A DNA stretch of 63,201 nucleotides, counting the filler, from Stramenopiles sp. TOSAG23-2 (taxonomy: Eukaryota): the NCBI GenBank assembly GCA_900128395.1. It is 18 parts of 18 records of this genome, joined end to end, with 100 filler letters (N's around TTAATTAATTAA, not from the genome) between each part and the next. Parts side by side here need not be neighbours in the genome. Positions count along the whole stretch, not along the records: positions 38,768 to 42,179 come from LT651219.1; 17 more parts are not named here. One strand, 5' to 3'. The translations under genes were made by a program, and so were the position numbers. Numbering within the stretch: the stretch's first letter is position 1; each line of letters begins with the position of its first letter. The notes below the pieces were generated by a model. The model did no database searches. It saw nothing but the letters and a program-made list of their open reading frames with translations, and was not told the DNA's origin. Shown here piece after piece: positions 3,442-60,032 of this stretch.

Positions 3442-3541
3442 NNNNNNNNNNNNNNNNNNNNNNNNNNNNNNNNNNNNNNNNNNNNTTAATTAATTAANNN
3501 NNNNNNNNNNNNNNNNNNNNNNNNNNNNNNNNNNNNNNNNN
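3442..3541. other. Artificial contig spacer N44-TTAATTAATTAA-N44 (first of 17)
   Basis: Identical 100-nt spacers begin at 3442, 6978, 10513, 14043, 17572, 21091, 24610, 28128, 31643, 35156, 38668, 42180, 45692, 49200, 52708, 56216 and 59712. The 12-mer has stops in all six frames. Contig lengths fall from 3436 to 3396. Confidence 0.98.
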
Positions 3542-3815
3542 TGATTATTATACGGATATACTTTGTTTTTTTATAAATCATTTTTGATTATTATATGGAT
3601 ATATAATATTTGTTTTTTTATTATTGATTATTGATTATTATACGGATATACTTTGTTTTTTTATTATTGATTATTGATTATTATATATATATATATGTAC
3701 TTTGTTTTTTTACTATTGATTATTGATTATTATAACGGATATACTTTTATCTTTCCACCATACTCTATACGGATATGATAAACTAAAAGGTGATATGTAC
3801 TTTTATCTTTCCATC
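3542..3815. repeat. Degenerate AT-rich tandem repeat, core TGATTATTATACGGATATACTTTGTTTTTTT
   Basis: About 5-6 diverged units directly at the contig end. Confidence 0.75.
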
Positions 3816-6874: not shown

Positions 6875-7079
6875 GGTAGGAGTGACACGTTAACTCTTTA
6901 TCTTGTGTATACTACTGTGTGATTTTACAAATTTACTACACATTATCGTCTTTCAAATTTCAAAGTTAACCTTTAAANNNNNNNNNNNNNNNNNNNNNNN
7001 NNNNNNNNNNNNNNNNNNNNNTTAATTAATTAANNNNNNNNNNNNNNNNNNNNNNNNNNNNNNNNNNNNNNNNNNNNAG

Positions 7080-8041: not shown

Positions 8042-10348
8042 ATGTCAGAAGTACGTATATCAAGACAAGGAAGTATTACAGTAACTACCCCATCTACCTC
8101 TTCAAATAATAATGATAATAATAACGATAATAATAATAGTGTATTAAAAAAATATCAAGATCCTTCCCCAAATAGATTAGATGTATCAAAAATAGATTTA
8201 ATAGATGATCCATTAGACCGTATGGTAGATAGCATGTTATTGTCTAGTAGGTTATCAGAACAACAGAAAGAAGATGGTGGCGTTAAAACGAATATGATGT
8301 TAAATACTTCCACTGCTTCTTTATTACGAACACAAGAGAATATGAAAAATATGAATAAAAAATTTGATAATCAACCAGAGGTAGATAATTTATTGTACAA
8401 CGATTTAGTCAGTGGCGTGATTGGTGGTTACAATAGTACGAAAAAAGTACATAATGGCAGGGCTACATTAGAACAGTCTTCACATGATCAATACGTAGCA
8501 TTGTTGGAAAAAGAAAATTTAGAACTATCAGAAAAAGCACTTCATTTAGAACGAGAGTTAGCTGATTCAGATAGTCGATATGATAGAGTTAGTTTAGAAA
8601 ACAAACATTTATTAGATGAATTGCGAGATGAAATTGCTCGTAGTGATTCACGTGCAAAAGAAATTTCAACATCATTGACAGGTGTAAGGCGTGAAACGGA
8701 AGAACAAGCAAATAAAGAAATGGCATTGTTGCGAAATGAATTAGATTTAGCAGTTGCAAAACGAGTAGAATTAGAAAATGCATTTCATGTACAAACACGA
8801 ACAATAGCTGAATTGAGTGGGGAAAATTTAGAATTAACGGAAGAGATGAAAAACATTCAACAATCGAGTGAAAATGAAGCTGTTTTAAATAAAAAAGTAA
8901 ACCATTCATCAGAAACTATCATGGAATTGCAAAATCGTTTAAATGAAGCACAAGAAAATTTATTAAAATCGCATAGTGAAATGCATGCATTAAGGCGTGA
9001 ATCGGAAATGTCACAAAATAAAATTATAGAAGAATCAAGGATTCATAATAAATCGGAATTACGATTAAATGAAACGATGGAAAATATGAAGCGGGAAATG
9101 AAGCAATTGGAACAAAGAGAGCGTCAATTGCGTGATGACGTGTTGAAGAAAGAAGGTGCATTAGGTGCTATGTCACATGATCGATTAAAAGCCGTCCATG
9201 AATTAGTATTAAAAGAAGAGGAAATAGAAAAATTAAAATTACAATACGAGCTAGAGGAGAAAAAAGAGACAAATATGGAATTAGAATATAAAAAGAAAAT
9301 AGAAACGATGAAACAGGAGCATGCGGAAAAAATTGAAAATCTACATAAAGAATTTGAATTAAAAACAAATCGATATATTGAAACAAATCGTAAAGCAGAA
9401 ACTACAATACAACAATTGAATAATTTAATAAATGAAAAATCACGTGAAAATTCCAATTTACAAATTAAATATTCATCCCTTGAGCAAAAAGCAGCTACAC
9501 TTCAACATGAATTAAATACACTCCGTGAAATAAGTGAAGCAGCTCGTGCGGATTTATCAGTTTCAAAATCAAATGTCTCAACTGTCAAAGGTGAATTAAA
9601 TAAGTCAAAATTACGTATATCAAATTTAGAAGAGACAAATATGCAAAACCAAAATCAAAATAGAAAATTAAAAAATAAAGTCGGTGAAATGGAAAATGAA
9701 CGATCAAAAATCATAAGTGTAATCAAGAATCAAGGCGAGGCATTGTCGAAGTTGACACTTCAAAATAAAAGCATGAAGCAAAAATTACGTAAATTAGATG
9801 ATACAATGTTGGAACAAAATAGCGATTTTCAAACTATTATTAACCAGATGAAGCAAGCTAGAAATTTGTCCTCAAAACATATAGAAAAATTAATTGTTCA
9901 AGAGCGAACATTGGCTACTCAAGAAGTTGAAATTGAAGATTTAAGACAAAATGTTGCTAGAGCAGATATTGAACATAAAACCATTGTAAAATTAAGAAAA
10001 GAGGTAAATGAATGGAGAAATAAATTTATGGGCATGGAAAAAGCAGCAGAAAGTGCAACGGAGATATGTAATGAATTGAAGCGTGAATTTGGTCTAATAG
10101 AAACAAAGTATACAAATGAGACTGAAATGCGTAAAGGTGTAGAAATTGAATATGAAAGATTGAAAGATTTAGTAAAACCTCAAACAGAAACCATGGAACA
10201 AATGGCCATAGAGTTGAAACGTGCTTTAGAACGGGAACAATCTGTACGAAATGAGTTAAGATCTGTACATGCAAGATTTGCACATTTTCACTCCTTGCAA
10301 ATTGGTTCAAGTAGAGGGAAACAACAACAATCATTTGATGAGCGATGA
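8042..10348 (+). CDS. Long coiled-coil protein (possibly centrosomal or cytoskeletal)
   Basis: 768-aa ORF, E/K/L/Q-rich heptad pattern, nearly proline-free after the N-terminus. Confidence 0.7.
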   Translation: MSEVRISRQGSITVTTPSTSSNNNDNNNDNNNSVLKKYQDPSPNRLDVSKIDLIDDPLDRMVDSMLLSSRLSEQQKEDGGVKTNMMLNTSTASLLRTQENMKNMNKKFDNQPEVDNLLYNDLVSGVIGGYNSTKKVHNGRATLEQSSHDQYVALLEKENLELSEKALHLERELADSDSRYDRVSLENKHLLDELRDEIARSDSRAKEISTSLTGVRRETEEQANKEMALLRNELDLAVAKRVELENAFHVQTRTIAELSGENLELTEEMKNIQQSSENEAVLNKKVNHSSETIMELQNRLNEAQENLLKSHSEMHALRRESEMSQNKIIEESRIHNKSELRLNETMENMKREMKQLEQRERQLRDDVLKKEGALGAMSHDRLKAVHELVLKEEEIEKLKLQYELEEKKETNMELEYKKKIETMKQEHAEKIENLHKEFELKTNRYIETNRKAETTIQQLNNLINEKSRENSNLQIKYSSLEQKAATLQHELNTLREISEAARADLSVSKSNVSTVKGELNKSKLRISNLEETNMQNQNQNRKLKNKVGEMENERSKIISVIKNQGEALSKLTLQNKSMKQKLRKLDDTMLEQNSDFQTIINQMKQARNLSSKHIEKLIVQERTLATQEVEIEDLRQNVARADIEHKTIVKLRKEVNEWRNKFMGMEKAAESATEICNELKREFGLIETKYTNETEMRKGVEIEYERLKDLVKPQTETMEQMAIELKRALEREQSVRNELRSVHARFAHFHSLQIGSSRGKQQQSFDER

Positions 10349-17671: not shown

Positions 17672-18040
17672 TTAATTTACTCATGATAATTCCTACTCTC
17701 CAGAAAGAATACAATAACTGAGACAAATCTATCTCACTACACTGAAAGATGGACAATGAATCGTAACATTGCGATAGAGTTCATTGAAATCCACAGAATG
17801 TGCCAATATTTTTAAGATACAAAAATGTTGGTGGAGGTAAATAGATGCAATTAACGCATTATAAGCATCAATTGAAAACTGTGTATTGTTCAAAGGTGTG
17901 TGATACATCGTACCGTGGTAGAGTATATCATGAGCCGTCTTGCATATACAGTTTAAAGTGCAATGAATATGACTCGCATCAGAGTCAGTAATCGGCACAA
18001 GGTTGATTAAAGATATTTGGGCATCAGAACTGCGATTACA
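17672..18040 (-). repeat. Dispersed repeat family A, longest copy
   Basis: Minus strand ends CAGTTATTGTATTCTTTCTGGAGAGTAGGAATTATCATGAGTAAATTAA; about 150 nt align with 59310-59460. Confidence 0.85.
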
Positions 18041-32533: not shown

Positions 32534-33379
32534 ATGTTTACAAAATCAACCCTTTTAAAACGCGCAATTACAAATAATGCACGTACTTGCTTCTTTTCCA
32601 CAGGACGTACACCAATTGTTGGTGGAAATTGGAAATTAAATGCTGGTAATGGTACTACATATTCCGAAGTGGAAACGTTAGTAAATGATTTAAACAACGC
32701 ACCAACACCAAAAACAAATGTAGAAATCATATGTGCACCACCAGCATTGTATTTAGATCGTGTCAACCAAGGATTGGATTCAAGTAAATTTAGTGTCTCT
32801 GCACAAAATTGTTATCATGAAAACAAAGGTGCATATACTGGTGAAAATTCTGCAACTATGTTGAAAGATTTAAATATTAATTGGACTTTAATTGGACATT
32901 CAGAAAGACGTGATATCTTTAGTGAAACTGATGATATGTTGGAGAAAAAAATAACTACGGCATTGGATGAGAATTTATCTGTAATTGCATGTTGTGGTGA
33001 ACATAAAGAAGATCGTGAAAATGGCACGACTATGAATGTATTGATTCCACAATTACAAGCTATGGTAAACGGCGTTGCAAATTCTTCCAGTAAATCATGG
33101 GATAATGTCGTTATTGCATATGAACCTGTCTGGGCAATTGGTACTGGTTTAACTGCAACACCAGAACAAGCACAAGAAACACATTTGAACATACGTACAT
33201 GGTTAAAAGAAAACGTTAGCGAATCTGTTGCCAATGCTGTACGTATTCAATACGGTGGTAGTGTAAATGATGAAAATGCAAAAGAATTAGGTAATATGGC
33301 AGATATTGATGGATTTTTAGTTGGTGGTGCATCATTAGATGCAGGTAAATTTAGTACCATTTACCATGCTTTCGATTGA
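32534..33379 (+). CDS. TPI: Triosephosphate isomerase with a mitochondrial-type presequence
   Basis: GGNWK, GHSERR, AYEPVWAIGTG and LVGGASL motifs; N-terminus MFTKSTLLKRAITNNARTCFFST is basic, S/T-rich and has no acidic residues. Confidence 0.96.
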   Translation: MFTKSTLLKRAITNNARTCFFSTGRTPIVGGNWKLNAGNGTTYSEVETLVNDLNNAPTPKTNVEIICAPPALYLDRVNQGLDSSKFSVSAQNCYHENKGAYTGENSATMLKDLNINWTLIGHSERRDIFSETDDMLEKKITTALDENLSVIACCGEHKEDRENGTTMNVLIPQLQAMVNGVANSSSKSWDNVVIAYEPVWAIGTGLTATPEQAQETHLNIRTWLKENVSESVANAVRIQYGGSVNDENAKELGNMADIDGFLVGGASLDAGKFSTIYHAFD

Positions 33380-33976: not shown

Positions 33977-34996
<1,020 letters not shown>

Positions 34997-38520: not shown

Positions 38521-39145
38521 CTATATGCATATGATATACCACCGTAGAGTAATGTTTTTTTATTTCATATATACAAAAATATTTTGTGTTGTTAGATGAT
38601 CTAATTATTATAATTTTTTTTTGTTACAATAGATATTCATATATATGTATATAAATGTATATATATANNNNNNNNNNNNNNNNNNNNNNNNNNNNNNNNN
38701 NNNNNNNNNNNTTAATTAATTAANNNNNNNNNNNNNNNNNNNNNNNNNNNNNNNNNNNNNNNNNNNNTAATCGTAAAATAAAATCAAAACGTGAAAAGAT
38801 ATTGTATGGTGCATATAATTTTAGTTAAAATAAAATAATATGATAAGTAGAAACACCTGTTTATTCTATCATATCTCAGTATCAGTATTATATCTCATAT
38901 TTTGATAGAGATATGATTATGATACTCGTATATATTACGAGTATATCTATCTATCAATAAATATTAACTCTATTATTTCTGAGATAGAGTATTGAGCACA
39001 TATCATAGTATTCATCACCGGATGATGTCATACGATTGTACTCGTACATGTTCGTAAAAATTATTAAAAAATTATGTGGCTTACTCGTAGACTTTAACTA
39101 TTATTATCTAGAATATTGCATATATGTATACCATGGCTCCGTCAC

Positions 39146-39180
39146 TGTATTCTTTTGAGAGTAGGAATTGTCATAAGTAG
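39146..39180 (+). repeat. Dispersed repeat family A, diverged short copy
   Basis: TGTATTCTTTTGAGAGTAGGAATTGTCATAAGTA. Confidence 0.7.
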
Positions 39181-39578
39181 TATATAATAAATTTCTGGTA
39201 GTGATTTAAGGATTTTGTTTTTAAGGGATTTTTTTCTGTTTCTAATGCTATTATGGTGCTAAACAGAAAAAAAAATATAAATTTTGTTTTTTTATCCTTA
39301 AAATTAGGTTCAAAAAACCGAAAATTTTGAGATTTTTTAGTGCTATTCCTATGCTAATTAAAAAATCGCATAAAAAACCTTAAATCAACAATATCAAAGT
39401 TGGGATTTCACAAAACCAACTTGAAAAAGTTCGCAAATCACTTTTTATGTTTAGTGGGGGGAACAAAATTCATTTCTGTATAAGAGATAAAACACTACAC
39501 ATAATGAAGAAACAATAATAATAATAACAACAACAATAACAACAACAACGAAAAACAAAACAAAATTAAGAAACAAAT

Positions 39579-39788
39579 ATGGCTTCTAATGTAGTAGCAA
39601 CCGAACAAAAAAGAAATGAAACCACATCAAAAAAAGCTTCTAAAGAAAAGGTTAAAAGGGTTTCGTTGAAAGAACGAAAAGTTTTAATTCAAAAAAAAGA
39701 GAAAGAACTTGAAAAAGAAAGACGAGAAGGCAATATATCTATGGACGAGTTAATGAAAAAATACGGTGAGTTGGTTTTTAGTTTTTAG
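39579..39788 (+). CDS. Small basic hypothetical protein
   Basis: 69-aa K/E-rich ORF with an A-rich leader. Confidence 0.4.
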   Translation: MASNVVATEQKRNETTSKKASKEKVKRVSLKERKVLIQKKEKELEKERREGNISMDELMKKYGELVFSF

Positions 39789-40067
39789 TTTTTGTAAATA
39801 TTAAAAAAGACCAACATTTAACTTGAAGCTTCATTTTTGGTAATAGTGTTTTCATCGTAGCAAAAAATGAGTGGTGAAGTTTTTCAAATTTCAAATAGAA
39901 TAAAAATATAGGAAGGAATTTTAGACTACTTTTGGTTCTATACTCATTATAATTATATATGTAATGAACTCTTTAAGTCCATTTACTAAATAATATAAAT
40001 TAAATAAGTTATTAAATAATTTTATTCTGCTTCAATTAAATTTTCAATTCGTTGAAGCTTCATAAAA

Positions 40068-40268
40068 TTATGCTATATTATCTTCCAATTCTTCCTTTTC
40101 TTCATCTGTTAAATCGTCCCAATCTTTATCATATTGAGATACTGCTTGTTGTTGTCTATAACAAACATAACATAAATCAGCCTCGCAATATTTATAAAGC
40201 TCATCACATTCTTCATAACAAAACGGACATTCTATACATTCATAAGAGGAACTATCTGTATCACTCAT
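40068..40268 (-). CDS. Small acidic CxxC...CxxC zinc-binding protein, virus-like, possibly frameshifted at the 3' end
   Basis: ATG at 40268 downstream of GACTTAAA; CPFC and CYVC motifs. Confidence 0.55.
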   Translation of the reverse strand: MSDTDSSSYECIECPFCYEECDELYKYCEADLCYVCYRQQQAVSQYDKDWDDLTDEEKEELEDNIA

Positions 40269-40323
40269 TATATTTAGATATATACTCAATTGTTTAAGTC
40301 CTTTTACTAATTAATATTTATTC

Positions 40324-41556
40324 TTAACACATATCATTAGTAGTAAATTCACATTCATTAAAAAATTCATTTACAGTTCCAGTAGCACATAACTTTATTT
40401 TTTTTACAAGAAATTTTTTATCATACTTTTTATATCTATATTCTATGCTTTCTAACTTCTTCATAAATTCAATATAAAATTTATCAAAAGTAATTAGTTC
40501 TTTTTGTGTAAGTATCTCATTTGGATTGTTTGGATTTAATTTTTTTATTTCACTAAAACTTTTTTGTTTAATTAATATACAAAGTTTTGGATACAAACTT
40601 CTAATCATATTTTTAAAGTCATCTGTAAATTTAGATTTTGTATGAAAAAATTTATATCGTTTCTCTTGTATATCTAAATGAAAATCTAACAACTTACATA
40701 CATACTTATTCATTTTTTCCCAATTAATTTCATTTGGTGATATATCTGTATAATAATTAATTCTTGAATTATGTATTTGATTATCATACTTATTAAATCC
40801 AGCTTTTCGCATATTTTCAAACTCTTCTATATGATGGCTACGCCTATATAAATTTTTTACATTTGGTGCTTCACTCTTATTAAACAAGGCAACGAGGAAT
40901 TTTTCTATATTTGTAAAATCAAAATGTATGGAAGAATTATCAAATATACCATTCCATTTATAAGAACTTAAATTTCTATATTTATAAATTTGTAATTGAT
41001 ATGTAGTATCTGGAATATTCCTTGGTGTTATTGATGTTGAAGCATCTTGTAATCTAACTATTTTTGTTGTATTTCCATATTCAAATTTGGCTCTTCCTGA
41101 ATTTGTTAATCCAATAAATCTGTATCTAATATCACAATATTTATGCTTATACAATTTTCCAATTTTAAAATATATTGGAGGTGGAACAGGAAAGTTAATA
41201 TCAGCAACCGCAAAAGATTTAATTATTCCCCATACATCTTCAGGAAAATAATAACCATCTTTATGAAAAGCTTGAAATAGTTTATTACTTAAATCAATCA
41301 TTCCAAAGGCTAAATCATTACAAATAGATAAATCTTTTTTTAAATTATAATATCTATCTCTTTCAGCTGTTAAACATTTATCTTTAACACCTTTTATATA
41401 AACATTTCTGTTATTAAAGCCTTTGTCTTCACCATTTTCATTAATATATCTTTCTTGATTTACTTCGTTATATGGTAAATTTAAATTATCTAACTTTTTT
41501 TGGTAGTTGCTTTCACTATTAAATGCTTTCTGTAAATTCTCTTGTATGCTTAACAT
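40324..41556 (-). CDS. Virus-like hypothetical protein with a possible F-box-like motif
   Basis: 410-aa K/N/I/Y-rich ORF; FPEDVWGIIKSF. Confidence 0.6.
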   Translation of the reverse strand: MLSIQENLQKAFNSESNYQKKLDNLNLPYNEVNQERYINENGEDKGFNNRNVYIKGVKDKCLTAERDRYYNLKKDLSICNDLAFGMIDLSNKLFQAFHKDGYYFPEDVWGIIKSFAVADINFPVPPPIYFKIGKLYKHKYCDIRYRFIGLTNSGRAKFEYGNTTKIVRLQDASTSITPRNIPDTTYQLQIYKYRNLSSYKWNGIFDNSSIHFDFTNIEKFLVALFNKSEAPNVKNLYRRSHHIEEFENMRKAGFNKYDNQIHNSRINYYTDISPNEINWEKMNKYVCKLLDFHLDIQEKRYKFFHTKSKFTDDFKNMIRSLYPKLCILIKQKSFSEIKKLNPNNPNEILTQKELITFDKFYIEFMKKLESIEYRYKKYDKKFLVKKIKLCATGTVNEFFNECEFTTNDMC

Positions 41557-41592
41557 ATTATATTTATATATGTAATGAACTCTTTAAGTCCA
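41557..41592 (-). promoter_or_regulatory. Repeated putative viral promoter TGGACTTAAAGAGTTCATTACATATA
   Basis: Identical block at ~39955-39982; core GACTTAAA also at 40293-40300; each lies about 23-34 nt upstream of an ATG. Confidence 0.7.
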
Positions 41593-41605
41593 TTATATAT
41601 ATATA

Positions 41606-41932
41606 TTATTTTCGTATGTTCCTACGACATATAGCACATTTGTCTATTTTATTAAAACAATTCTCACAAAATTTATGTCCGCACCCTGTAATTTTTAATT
41701 TACCTTCATCTATAATTTCAAGACATATAGGACACTCCAACTTTTTCTTCAGTTCTTTCATCATATTTTCTATTTCATTAACCAAATGATTTGGTAATAC
41801 ATCTAATATAGGTTGAATTGTATTATATTGTTGCTGGAATAAATAATGATTAATTGTTAATTCCTCATAGTATTTAGCCCACGCATACGCTTTTTGTTTT
41901 CGTAATTTAGTAATTATATTTTGATTACTCAT
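41606..41932 (-). CDS. Small C3HC4 RING finger protein (putative E3 ligase)
   Basis: CPIC-x11-CGHKFCENC-x6-CAIC. Confidence 0.88.
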   Translation of the reverse strand: MSNQNIITKLRKQKAYAWAKYYEELTINHYLFQQQYNTIQPILDVLPNHLVNEIENMMKELKKKLECPICLEIIDEGKLKITGCGHKFCENCFNKIDKCAICRRNIRK

Positions 41933-41958
41933 CTATAAATATTAATTCAAAGATATGT

Positions 41959-42179
41959 TTATATTGTTTTTGTTATTAATTTATTTAATAGTTGTTGTTG
42001 TAAGAAATATTGTTTTAACTGTTTTAATTCTTCTTCTTTTTTTGTGTCTATTTTTTTTCTAATTATTACTCTTTTTGGTTTCATTTTAAGTTTCTGTTTT
42101 AAATCTACAATTTCTTCTTTTAAGTTTTTTATCAATAAATCTTTTTTGTTGTCTAACTCTAAATAAAACTGTGTAGCTT
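41959..42179 (-). CDS. C-terminal fragment of a K-rich virus-like ORF
   Basis: Open frame from the gap to TAA at 41961-41959, only 26 nt before the RING start codon. Confidence 0.5.
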
Positions 42180-49299: not shown

Positions 49300-49445
49300 G
49301 ATACTATCTATTTACCTTCATTGGTATTTTCGATTATGAGAATATCAACACACTTGTGTGAGATAGATTATTTCAGTTATTTTATTCTTTTGAAGAGTAG
49401 GAATTATCATGAGTAAATTAAAAATAAATTATGCGTAAATTAAAT
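49300..49445 (+). repeat. Dispersed repeat family A copy
   Basis: ATCTATTTACCT, GTGAGATAGATT, CAGTTATT and GAGTAGGAATTATCATGAGTAAATTAA shared with the 17672 copy. Confidence 0.85.
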
Positions 49446-59309: not shown

Positions 59310-59460
59310 ATGGCACACTCTGTAGATTACGATGAACTCAATCGCAATGTTACGATTCATTGTCCATCTTTCAATTTAGTGAGATAGATATATCATTGCC
59401 TCAGTTATTGTATTCTTTATGGAGAGTAGGAATTATCATATCTAAATATGAGTAAATTAT
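59310..59460 (+). repeat. Dispersed repeat family A copy
   Basis: ATCGCAATGTTACGATTCATTGTCCATCTTTCA is identical to the minus strand at ~17742-17774; ends GGAGAGTAGGAATTATCAT. Confidence 0.88.
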
Positions 59461-60032
59461 ATAAAAAAATAAATTTATAAATGCATCATTTAAATATTCG
59501 TTCGTCGAACAACTTATTGGTATTGTCAGTTGTATCTTGACGCATCACAATAAGTAGTAGTAGTAATAATAGTAGTAGCACGCACAAAGCAAAATGGAAA
59601 AAAAAGAAAAAGTAGCAATAGCAGCCCTGTTGGTATGATAGTAGCAGCTCCAGTGCGATTGAGTATTGAGCATATTACTTAACACGAGAAGTGTAAAATT
59701 ATTATAACTTCNNNNNNNNNNNNNNNNNNNNNNNNNNNNNNNNNNNNNNNNNNNNTTAATTAATTAANNNNNNNNNNNNNNNNNNNNNNNNNNNNNNNNN
59801 NNNNNNNNNNNGGAGCAAATATATTTTTTGGTAGACTTCTTTGCTAACTGCTGGTCTACTGTTTATTGAGCAACTTGGTTGGCTTATTCGTGGGGGTTTT
59901 TTCTAGTGGATTGGTTAGTAATTGCATTCACGAACTAGTTGCCACGATTATTGATTAGGATAATAGTTACACAAGGCTCTCATTGACTACTAAAGGAACG
60001 TTTTTAACGGCTGGCAAACGGTGACAAACGTT

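Follow-up and report, generated by a model that had tools for sequence, protein, structure and literature searches.

Do the closely packed genes at one end of a small contig of Stramenopiles sp. TOSAG23-2 (GenBank assembly GCA_900128395.1) belong to the flagellate's own genome, or are they a piece of a virus that is joined to it? The contig in question (LT651219.1; 3412 bp) covers positions 38768-42179 of the window, by which we mean the whole stretch of 63,201 bases that was analysed. From the sequence alone, a first-pass annotation had described its right part, 39181-42179, as a compact virus-like gene cluster with its own promoter grammar. We found viral kinship for two of these genes, a repeat directly upstream of three of the starts, and a core motif of this repeat that is conserved in position in virophage contigs. 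The viral origin of the block is well supported. Our preferred reading, to which we give a probability of roughly 60%, is that positions 39927-42179 derive from a small virus with a double-stranded DNA genome, of the virophage or Polinton-like virus (PLV) kind, and are joined at 39926/39927 to the nuclear DNA of a marine flagellate.

A compact and AT-rich gene block

The 18 unplaced contigs that make up the window are 3390-3441 bases long, stand in descending order of length and are separated by 17 linkers of the form N44-TTAATTAATTAA-N44 (3442-3541, 6978-7077 and so on to 59712-59811), with one such linker on each side of LT651219.1. Because the contigs were joined by linkers, their adjacency in the window is without physical meaning. 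The GC content of LT651219.1 (24.3%) is the lowest of the 18, with 28.5-39.8% in the other 17. For 39921-42179 it was 23.3%, versus 29.8-39.9% for 12 long open reading frames (ORFs) of the other contigs, which places the viral block 6-16 points under the host ORFs and agrees with the higher AT content that had been noted for it.

Five co-oriented starts follow each other on the minus strand with spacers of 26, 49, 55 and 120 nt, as the first-pass annotation had described. First in the series is an ORF truncated at the contig end, of which the C-terminal 72 aa remain (42177-41962; Lys/Glu-rich and predicted helical), and then come a 108-aa RING protein (41932-41609), a 410-aa protein (41556-40327) and a 66-aa protein (40268-40071) with a Cys-rich N terminus (7 Cys) and an acidic C terminus. 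Of the fifth gene only a stub is left (39947-39921; MSIEPKVV plus stop), which retains its full putative promoter block and its ATG and is cut after 7 codons at the breakpoint. The ORFs are uninterrupted, as had been observed, but this has little value as a viral sign: uninterrupted ORFs of 600-1000 aa are also present on other contigs, and the absence of introns is therefore not discriminating.

At the stop codon of the 66-aa gene starts a hairpin (40016-40071, minus strand) with 20-nt arms that are 85% complementary. Its fold (-14.7 kcal/mol; z = -4.67) was equalled in 0 of 200 shuffles. Transcripts of the mimivirus type terminate at hairpins of such kind, and the hairpin after the 66-aa gene is possibly a signal for the transcript 3' end.

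The RING protein and its relatives in virophage contigs

In the 108-aa protein (41932-41609, minus strand) an N-terminal helical hairpin is followed by a RING finger of the C3HC4 type. Six Pfam profiles exceeded their cut-offs (zf-RING_5 with 5.4e-07, zf-C3HC4 with 7e-07, zf-C3HC4_3, zf-C3HC4_2, zf-RING_2 and zf-RING_UBOX), the Cys and His positions of the RING were invariant in 22 sequences, and the structural model (pLDDT 92.9) showed a long helical hairpin, then the RING. With the C3HC4 cross-brace zinc-binding pattern of RING-type E3 ubiquitin ligases, the protein is a candidate for ligase activity. Among 50 candidate relatives, 47 were confirmed at E <= 0.001; they were about 104-142 aa long and all metagenomic, the best of them 92% identical. 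The family signature was conserved over the full length of the protein, beyond the RING domain.

A relative was encoded in 234 of 291 candidate stretches of the IMG/VR database, of which the best 80 were fetched, and 82 loci (L001 to L082) were compared in total. Statements on the gene content of these loci apply to the parts of them that were examined. Full-length relatives (residues ~1-108) were mostly found on IMG/VR contigs of 15-30 kb, often close to the contig end, with identities of up to 57% to our protein among the best 80 of the 234. On contigs of giant-virus metagenome-assembled genomes (MAGs) the match covered only the RING domain, residues ~29-103. A Pfam scan of 77 of the 93 ORFs of at least 150 aa from eight loci (the 11 ORFs of L034 and 5 overlapping ORFs were excluded) identified a Sputnik-type major capsid protein (MCP) in L016 (2e-71) and L018 (2e-74) by the profiles Sputnik_MCP_1st and MCP_V20_C, together with a penton protein. 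Primase or D5-type replication proteins were found in L018 and L038, D5-type or DUF5906 helicase matches in L003 and L006, and an MCP at 1.1e-78 in the record of L007. With two MCP seeds, jackhmmer detected an MCP-like ORF in at least 26 of the 82 loci. Judged by these gene neighbourhoods, the RING family is an accessory gene of virophages and their kin.

In a fold search of the BFVD database, the RING model matched only RING proteins of giant viruses and other large DNA viruses, and only over the RING domain (TM 0.33-0.49); no named virophage and no named full-length relative of the RING protein was among the BFVD matches.

In the loci nearest to the RING gene of the window, we also observed a family of 860-1150 aa beside an A32-like ATPase gene. 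Its members lie at 3014-5629 in L003, 3621-6380 in L005, 4886-7462 in L006, 13188-16202 in L038, 6183-9152 in L032 and 4914-8381 in L051, and none had a Pfam match. As a Sputnik-type MCP, the members of 860-1000 aa in L003, L005 and L006 were rejected (hhalign probability 0.1).

The 410-aa protein and a 27-kb virus-like contig

The 410-aa protein (41556-40327, minus strand) belongs to a rare, unnamed family of marine virus-like contigs. An exhaustive search among 1.84 billion representatives returned 6 matches at E <= 0.001, on short and unnamed ENA or Logan contigs. No Pfam or PHROG family was matched, a word-based homologue search was empty, and the search of IMG/VR gave nothing, either with the single protein or with an alignment (A2). 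Full-length relatives occurred in two metagenome loci, the sole ones of the 82: the 27-kb marine contig L001 (JAAHTH010000915.1) and L002, a near-identical 10-kb TARA scaffold. By BLASTP the protein aligned end to end and collinearly with L001 874-2244 (26% identity, E 1e-22), which is the first gene of that contig. L001 has tight ORFs on two strands and encodes a 1212-aa protein with a C-terminal superfamily 1 (SF1) helicase (PIF1/AAA_30), methyltransferase-like genes and DUF5754, and for three more of its genes, IMG/VR loci with a RING gene encode relatives. Fusions of a polymerase or primase with an SF1 helicase are typical of the PgVV/TVS group of PLVs. No Sputnik-type MCP was present in the 45% of L001 that was examined. 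From its genes L001 appears virus-like, and our suggested link to PLVs is made by the relative of the 410-aa protein on this one contig.

The first-pass annotation had proposed ubiquitin-pathway genes in the block, namely a RING finger and an F-box-like motif. While the RING finger is there, no F-box family was matched at E <= 1 by the 410-aa ORF or by 9 alignment members. The motif that had been noticed is probably the conserved stretch FPE.(I/V)W..I..FA, which we take to resemble the beginning of an F-box. Structure prediction with AlphaFold from 9 sequences gave the 410-aa ORF a pLDDT of only 40, and the nearest clusters in the ESM Atlas were hypothetical proteins of Nucleocytoviricota with a score of 0.82, where scores below 0.9 are leads only. 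On L001 a 79-aa ORF (8136-8372, plus strand) begins MDKLPIELLHKIF, which has the look of an F-box start; the Pfam F-box-like match had an E value of only 0.22.

A shared upstream block and the ACTTAAA motif

A block of about 27 nt had been noted as repeated upstream of the ATGs at 41556 and 39947. The 26-mer quoted for it has exactly two copies in the window (39956-39981 and 41567-41592), and two matches were reached in 0 of 100 shuffles. The full exact repeat is 31 nt long (39953-39983 and 41564-41594) and forms the core of a 60-nt block, which is present in three copies of 80-82% identity on the minus strand, directly before ATGs. The copy at 39942-40001 has ACTTAAA 31 nt before the ATG at 39947, that at 40263-40322, a GGACTTAAAC variant, 31 nt before the ATG at 40268, and that at 41553-41612, 33 nt before the ATG at 41556. 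The RING gene (ATG at 41932) has a degenerate ATATAAA in register, 32 nt upstream. The earlier observation of similarly spaced elements before 40268 and 41932 was therefore correct. GGACTTAAA has 3 copies in the window, all in this contig (3 were reached in 2 of 100 shuffles), and ACTTAAA was counted 7 times in the 3.4-kb contig versus 5 times in the other 58 kb.

The motif was set from the window before the virus loci were examined, and its test in these loci is fair because the window had fixed it beforehand. We used 1115 non-overlapping ORFs of at least 75 aa with 100 nt upstream from the 82 loci. In these upstream regions, 29 of 43 sense copies of ACTTAAA fell 30-49 nt before the ATG (binomial 1e-10), compared with 4 of 26 antisense copies. 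After dereplication, which dropped identical upstream regions as well as L001 and L002 and left 940 regions, 27 copies were located in this zone versus 14 elsewhere. ACTTAAA ranked first of 105 permutations of the same letters (mean 4.6, next best 15). The 29 positioned genes are spread over 20 of the 82 loci and comprise RING genes (L006, L011), ORFs of 856-1000 aa and small ORFs; the positioned long ORFs of L011 and L038 matched primase/D5 families in the scans of other loci, and the 1000-aa ORF of L038 had a Prim-Pol match. Typically the motif marks two or three genes per locus and is followed by an ATA-rich stretch, the same as in the window. The promoter grammar proposed in the first-pass annotation is real and recurs in virus contigs, and from its sequence and position we infer a promoter function.

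Two further relatives carry the motif. One is P0001, which is closely related to the 410-aa protein and whose called start is an ATG within the motif, so that MNLKTSLHSILD precedes the true start MLSIQD; because this annotated N terminus results from translating the motif, the orthologue has retained the motif upstream of its gene. In run X3 (see below), the flank past a related RING gene again reads AACTTAAAGAC (loose end 41606). The motif itself holds an internal ATG with a stop nine codons on, and a transcript starting upstream of it would carry a false start; transcription would therefore most likely start between the motif and the ATG of the gene.

L001 and L002 follow the same plan with a different sequence. 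In both, the four genes at the start of the contig, of which the relative of the 410-aa protein is the first, each have a GC-rich block of ~50 nt that ends at the ATG (ttcgctcgt.ctctacatatcgtagggggcgggcgcgcaggtagtaacaag; L001 ~820-873, 2290-2341, 2772-2823 and 3755-3806, with the same in L002), and the other genes of L001 have plain AT-rich upstream regions. The exact 20-nt motif of the window was not found in IMG/VR, and a full-text search for ACTTAAAG together with virophage returned no paper, the supplementary motif tables of virophage papers lying outside that search. We further observed that in L003-L082 related words are frequent 30-49 nt upstream (ATTTAAA 82 versus 86 elsewhere, TGATTTA 35 versus 14, GGTTTAA 18 versus 4), and ACTTAAA may be one variant of a broader NNTTAAA promoter family.

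The host-like flank and the joint at 39926/39927

Left of the block, 38768-39578 contains no ORF of at least 40 codons. The host repeat that had been reported for the left part of the contig is a dispersed repeat of ~55 nt (39127-39193, plus strand), of which three other contigs have copies close to their ends at 81-83% identity (17678-17725, 49383-49430 and 59389-59440). In the best-matching sequencing run, X1, its word depth was 751 versus 27-103 beside it, with many different flanks, and its 24-nt core was absent from IMG/VR. The repeat is followed by an (AAC)n-like tract and then by a Lys/Glu-rich, host-like small ORF on the plus strand (39579-39788; 69 aa unspliced, GTGAGT at 39766, no Pfam match). 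Because every candidate splice acceptor leads to a stop within 3-26 codons, this is a small or truncated gene, presumably of the host.

Run X1 (8 million letters) contained 0.93 of the sampled words of the sequence, run X3, from the same study with another organism label, 0.21, and 18 marine or seawater metagenome and metatranscriptome runs 0.06-0.22. Since the runs that bear the sequence are marine, so is the organism, and a dictyostelid host, considered at first, was rejected for this reason. Small word shares of X4-X20 and uncovered parts in X2-X4 were not counted as evidence, and run depths are those of assembled contigs. The X1 contigs break at the 31-nt repeat (39954-41593 and 41565-42154). 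A further X1 contig (record 6) bridges 39566-39982 at a depth of 27, with flanks of 27 and 31-38, so the physical joint is observed in this one sample; no X1 loose end near 39927 was among the matches listed. In X3 a contig (record 22) equals 39566-39926 with 0 differences and then continues with 413 nt unlike the window. Because the identity with X3 ends there, we place the breakpoint between host-like DNA on the left and virus-like DNA on the right at 39926/39927, which falls within codon 8 of the stub.

X3 also contains the RING region 41606-42099 at ~93% identity, with other flanks and a depth of 199 versus 23 for the shared host-like flank, and the last part of the 72-aa ORF is conserved in this relative. 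The depth of 199 could reflect a high copy number, replication of a virus or nothing more than biased amplification. The marine metagenome X4 contains 39938-40296 with 0 differences, and another X4 contig diverges before 39990. Contigs of a marine metatranscriptome, X2, map on 41221-41485, 41715-42008 and 42055-42179; this cover was not counted as expression, DNA carry-over being possible. At the left end of the contig, an X1 contig (DNA, 3712 nt) and an X2 contig (3583 nt) overlap 38768-38999 and extend ~3.4 kb further left, which would allow the assembly to be lengthened on this side.

What the block is

The joint can be read as an integrated viral copy or as an artefact, and several results weigh against a virophage or PLV piece integrated in the flagellate genome. 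No capsid, penton, packaging ATPase, protease, polymerase or integrase gene is encoded on the contig. The first-pass annotation had suggested scanning the other contigs for capsid, ATPase, polymerase and integrase genes; this was fruitless, with no viral hallmark gene among the ORFs of at least 100 aa on the other 17. Because hallmark genes are missing from the contig and from the other 17, the element class depends on two accessory genes. As far as sequence comparison goes, a single gene, that of the full-length RING family, connects the block to virophage gene content. The 410-aa and RING families occurred together in 0 of 82 loci, and the 72-aa product had no relative in the 82 loci. The 66-aa protein, formerly described as a small zinc-binding protein, has 7 Cys but showed no family match, and no homologue was found. 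In L003-L006, the closest RING loci, we found no Sputnik-type MCP, and the A32-like ATPase matches of L003 and L006 were just below the Pfam cut-off. In the fetched giant-virus MAG loci, the motif was noted in position only as single copies (L053, L080). As to the joint, a single junction was seen, inside a gene, with no second junction, terminal repeat, terminal inverted repeat (TIR) or target duplication.

The chief rival holds that free virophage or PLV DNA was present in or on the sampled cell and that 39926/39927 is a chimera of whole-genome amplification or assembly, which we judge unlikely. The breakpoint cuts a viral gene after 7 codons without a terminal repeat, and the likely source run is very small, with 8 million letters and depths that are those of contigs, so that an early amplification chimera is possible. 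The left flank continues in X3 into other DNA (39566-39926 with 0 differences, then 413 nt), which fits an empty site as well as an artefact. The ~93%-identical RING region in X3 has a depth of 199 against 23 for the flank, X4 contains a piece of the viral block in identical form (39938-40296) beside the contig diverging before 39990, and a 92%-identical RING protein occurs in an unrelated metagenome assembly. On the other hand, the bridging X1 contig has a depth of 27, like both flanks (27; 31-38), where a late chimera would be expected as a minority branch, and neither an uninterrupted host nor a viral version appears as a loose end at 39927 among the matches listed. We therefore regard a truncated integrated copy, polymorphic between cells, as likely, with about twice the odds of an artefact. 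Of the integration that had been suggested earlier, one X1-bridged junction that cuts a viral gene is at hand, but not a second junction or TIR.

The first-pass annotation had left the choice between a PLV, a virophage and a giant virus. That the block is a genome fragment of a giant virus (Nucleocytoviricota), endogenous or infecting, seems improbable to us, even if its high AT content, its dense and intronless genes, their common upstream motif and the hairpin behind a gene would fit such a genome too. The fold matches of the RING model in BFVD were all to RING proteins of giant viruses or other large DNA viruses, but they were limited to the RING domain (TM 0.33-0.49), as were the matches on giant-virus MAG contigs (residues ~29-103), whereas the relatives that match over the full length come from contigs of 15-30 kb, many of which also encode a virophage capsid. 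Similarly, the Nucleocytoviricota clusters nearest to the 410-aa protein in the ESM Atlas scored only 0.82, and scores below 0.9 count as leads only. The small-virus kind is favoured by the RING family with its capsid loci and by L001. Still further from what we observed, and very improbable in our view, would be a host gene cluster or a non-viral transposon whose upstream repeat is shared by chance. The contig does bear a dispersed host repeat and a host-like small gene, and two of the four products are without relatives. Against this stand the co-occurrence of the RING family with virophage capsid genes, the relative of the 410-aa protein on a 27-kb virus-like contig, the GC content 6-16 points under that of host ORFs, and the restriction of GGACTTAAA to this one contig of the 18, with ACTTAAA 7 times in 3.4 kb versus 5 times in 58 kb.

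Proposed organisation and expression

If the block is a virophage or PLV piece joined to flagellate nuclear DNA, it would be a block of accessory or early-type genes, encoding the coiled-coil, RING, 410-aa and Cys-rich 66-aa proteins plus 7 codons of a fifth gene, and the joint would most likely mark a truncated integrated copy. Each gene might form its own transcription unit. Expression would then depend on a co-infecting giant virus: the core (G)GACTTAAA(G/C), which lies 31-33 nt upstream of the ATG and has an ATATA-like stretch after it, would be recognised by the transcription apparatus of that virus and not by that of the host, as known virophage promoters are. The hairpin past the 66-aa gene may set the 3' end of the transcript, and the RING protein might act as an E3 ubiquitin ligase on a target of the host or of the giant virus. 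A wider proposal, about which we are rather doubtful, is that ACTTAAA(G) ~30-45 nt before the ATG is an early-type promoter of a still unknown marine giant-virus lineage, which would be used by an entire RING-bearing virophage clade for replication and host-manipulation genes and also by this element of an uncultured marine flagellate, the integrated copy then being inducible by a giant virus in the way of mavirus.

Comparison with known virophages and PLVs

Endogenous virophages and PLVs with their own promoter motifs and RING accessory genes are already known from protists. Type-specific promoter motifs of endogenous virophages are read as signs of different helper giant viruses (Hackl 2021, PMC8547959; Roux 2017; preprint on PgVV, 10.1101/2022.07.28.501842). 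The endogenous mavirus-like elements (EMALEs) of Cafeteria burkhardae are described as complete elements of the 20-kb class with capsid, ATPase, protease, polymerase and integrase genes, TIRs and target duplications, and their type-specific motifs are taken to mean dependence on particular giant viruses (PMC8547959). What we see resembles EMALEs in several respects: probable virophage DNA is continuous with that of the nucleus of a marine flagellate of the heterotrophic type, the genes are compact and AT-shifted, and element-specific motifs stand upstream of ORFs; truncated EMALE copies exist as well (PMC8547959). Unlike EMALEs, the piece described here has 2.26 kb, four accessory genes and one junction, and its motif is ACTTAAA(G) versus TCTA in EMALE type 4, the one type whose motif was compared (PMC8547959).

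With the virophages of the Sputnik MCP type in IMG/VR (among them L007, L010-L024 and L034) the block shares the full-length RING family of ~110 aa, and with L006, L011, L056, L061 and others the ACTTAAA core, which in these loci precedes the ATGs of some genes by 30-49 nt. It differs from them in the 410-aa, 66-aa and 72-aa products, which were not found in those contigs, and in a RING identity of at most 57% among the best 80 of 234. L001 and L002 have in common with it the 410-aa family and the design in which successive genes each have a long conserved block immediately before the ATG, but their block is of other, GC-rich sequence, they encode the SF1 helicase fusion protein, and no gene of the RING family was present in them.

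In PgVV-14T, a PLV of Phaeocystis, the early promoter of the helper giant virus, AAAATTGA, is reported on a subset of genes only (10.1101/2022.07.28.501842). The ACTTAAA motif likewise marks a subset of genes, including ORFs of replication size in related contigs, but it differs from AAAATTGA, the comparison being one of motifs. For endogenous virophages and PLVs of Halocafeteria seosinensis, a preprint lists a RING finger protein cluster common to most members of several subtypes (10.64898/2026.07.28.741278), so that RING genes, though not necessarily those of the family described here, already count as shared accessory genes of such elements.

Endogenous virophages and PLVs are thought to be inducible defences of protists against giant viruses, and most known pairs of host and element come from few cultured species. 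While the element itself is of an expected kind and a short truncated piece, the contig ties the nuclear DNA of a marine flagellate to a widespread, unnamed group of RING-bearing virophage-like viruses, and would reveal a host for this group if the joint is true. New are the marine link between host and element, the rare 410-aa family and the finding that ACTTAAA(G) keeps its position in many contigs of uncultivated virophages. Should this motif act as a promoter, a helper giant virus still to be identified would be implied, and the motif would provide a handle for finding it. If the reading as an early promoter is also true, the motif might serve as a probe for pairing uncultivated virophages, giant viruses and protist hosts.

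Other contigs of the window

Scans of the contig and of the window for Rfam families and tRNAs gave no match. The genes of the other 17 contigs are ordinary eukaryotic ones and encode the cilia and flagella protein FAP206, a sulfatase, tetratricopeptide repeat (TPR) and ankyrin proteins, Ras, a protein kinase, dynamitin, a cyclophilin, HemD, a cytochrome-b5 fusion, and triosephosphate isomerase beside GAPDH. The latter two genes lie head to tail on the plus strand of one contig (triosephosphate isomerase 32534-33376, GAPDH 33992-34993); a fusion or pair of these two genes is typical of stramenopiles.

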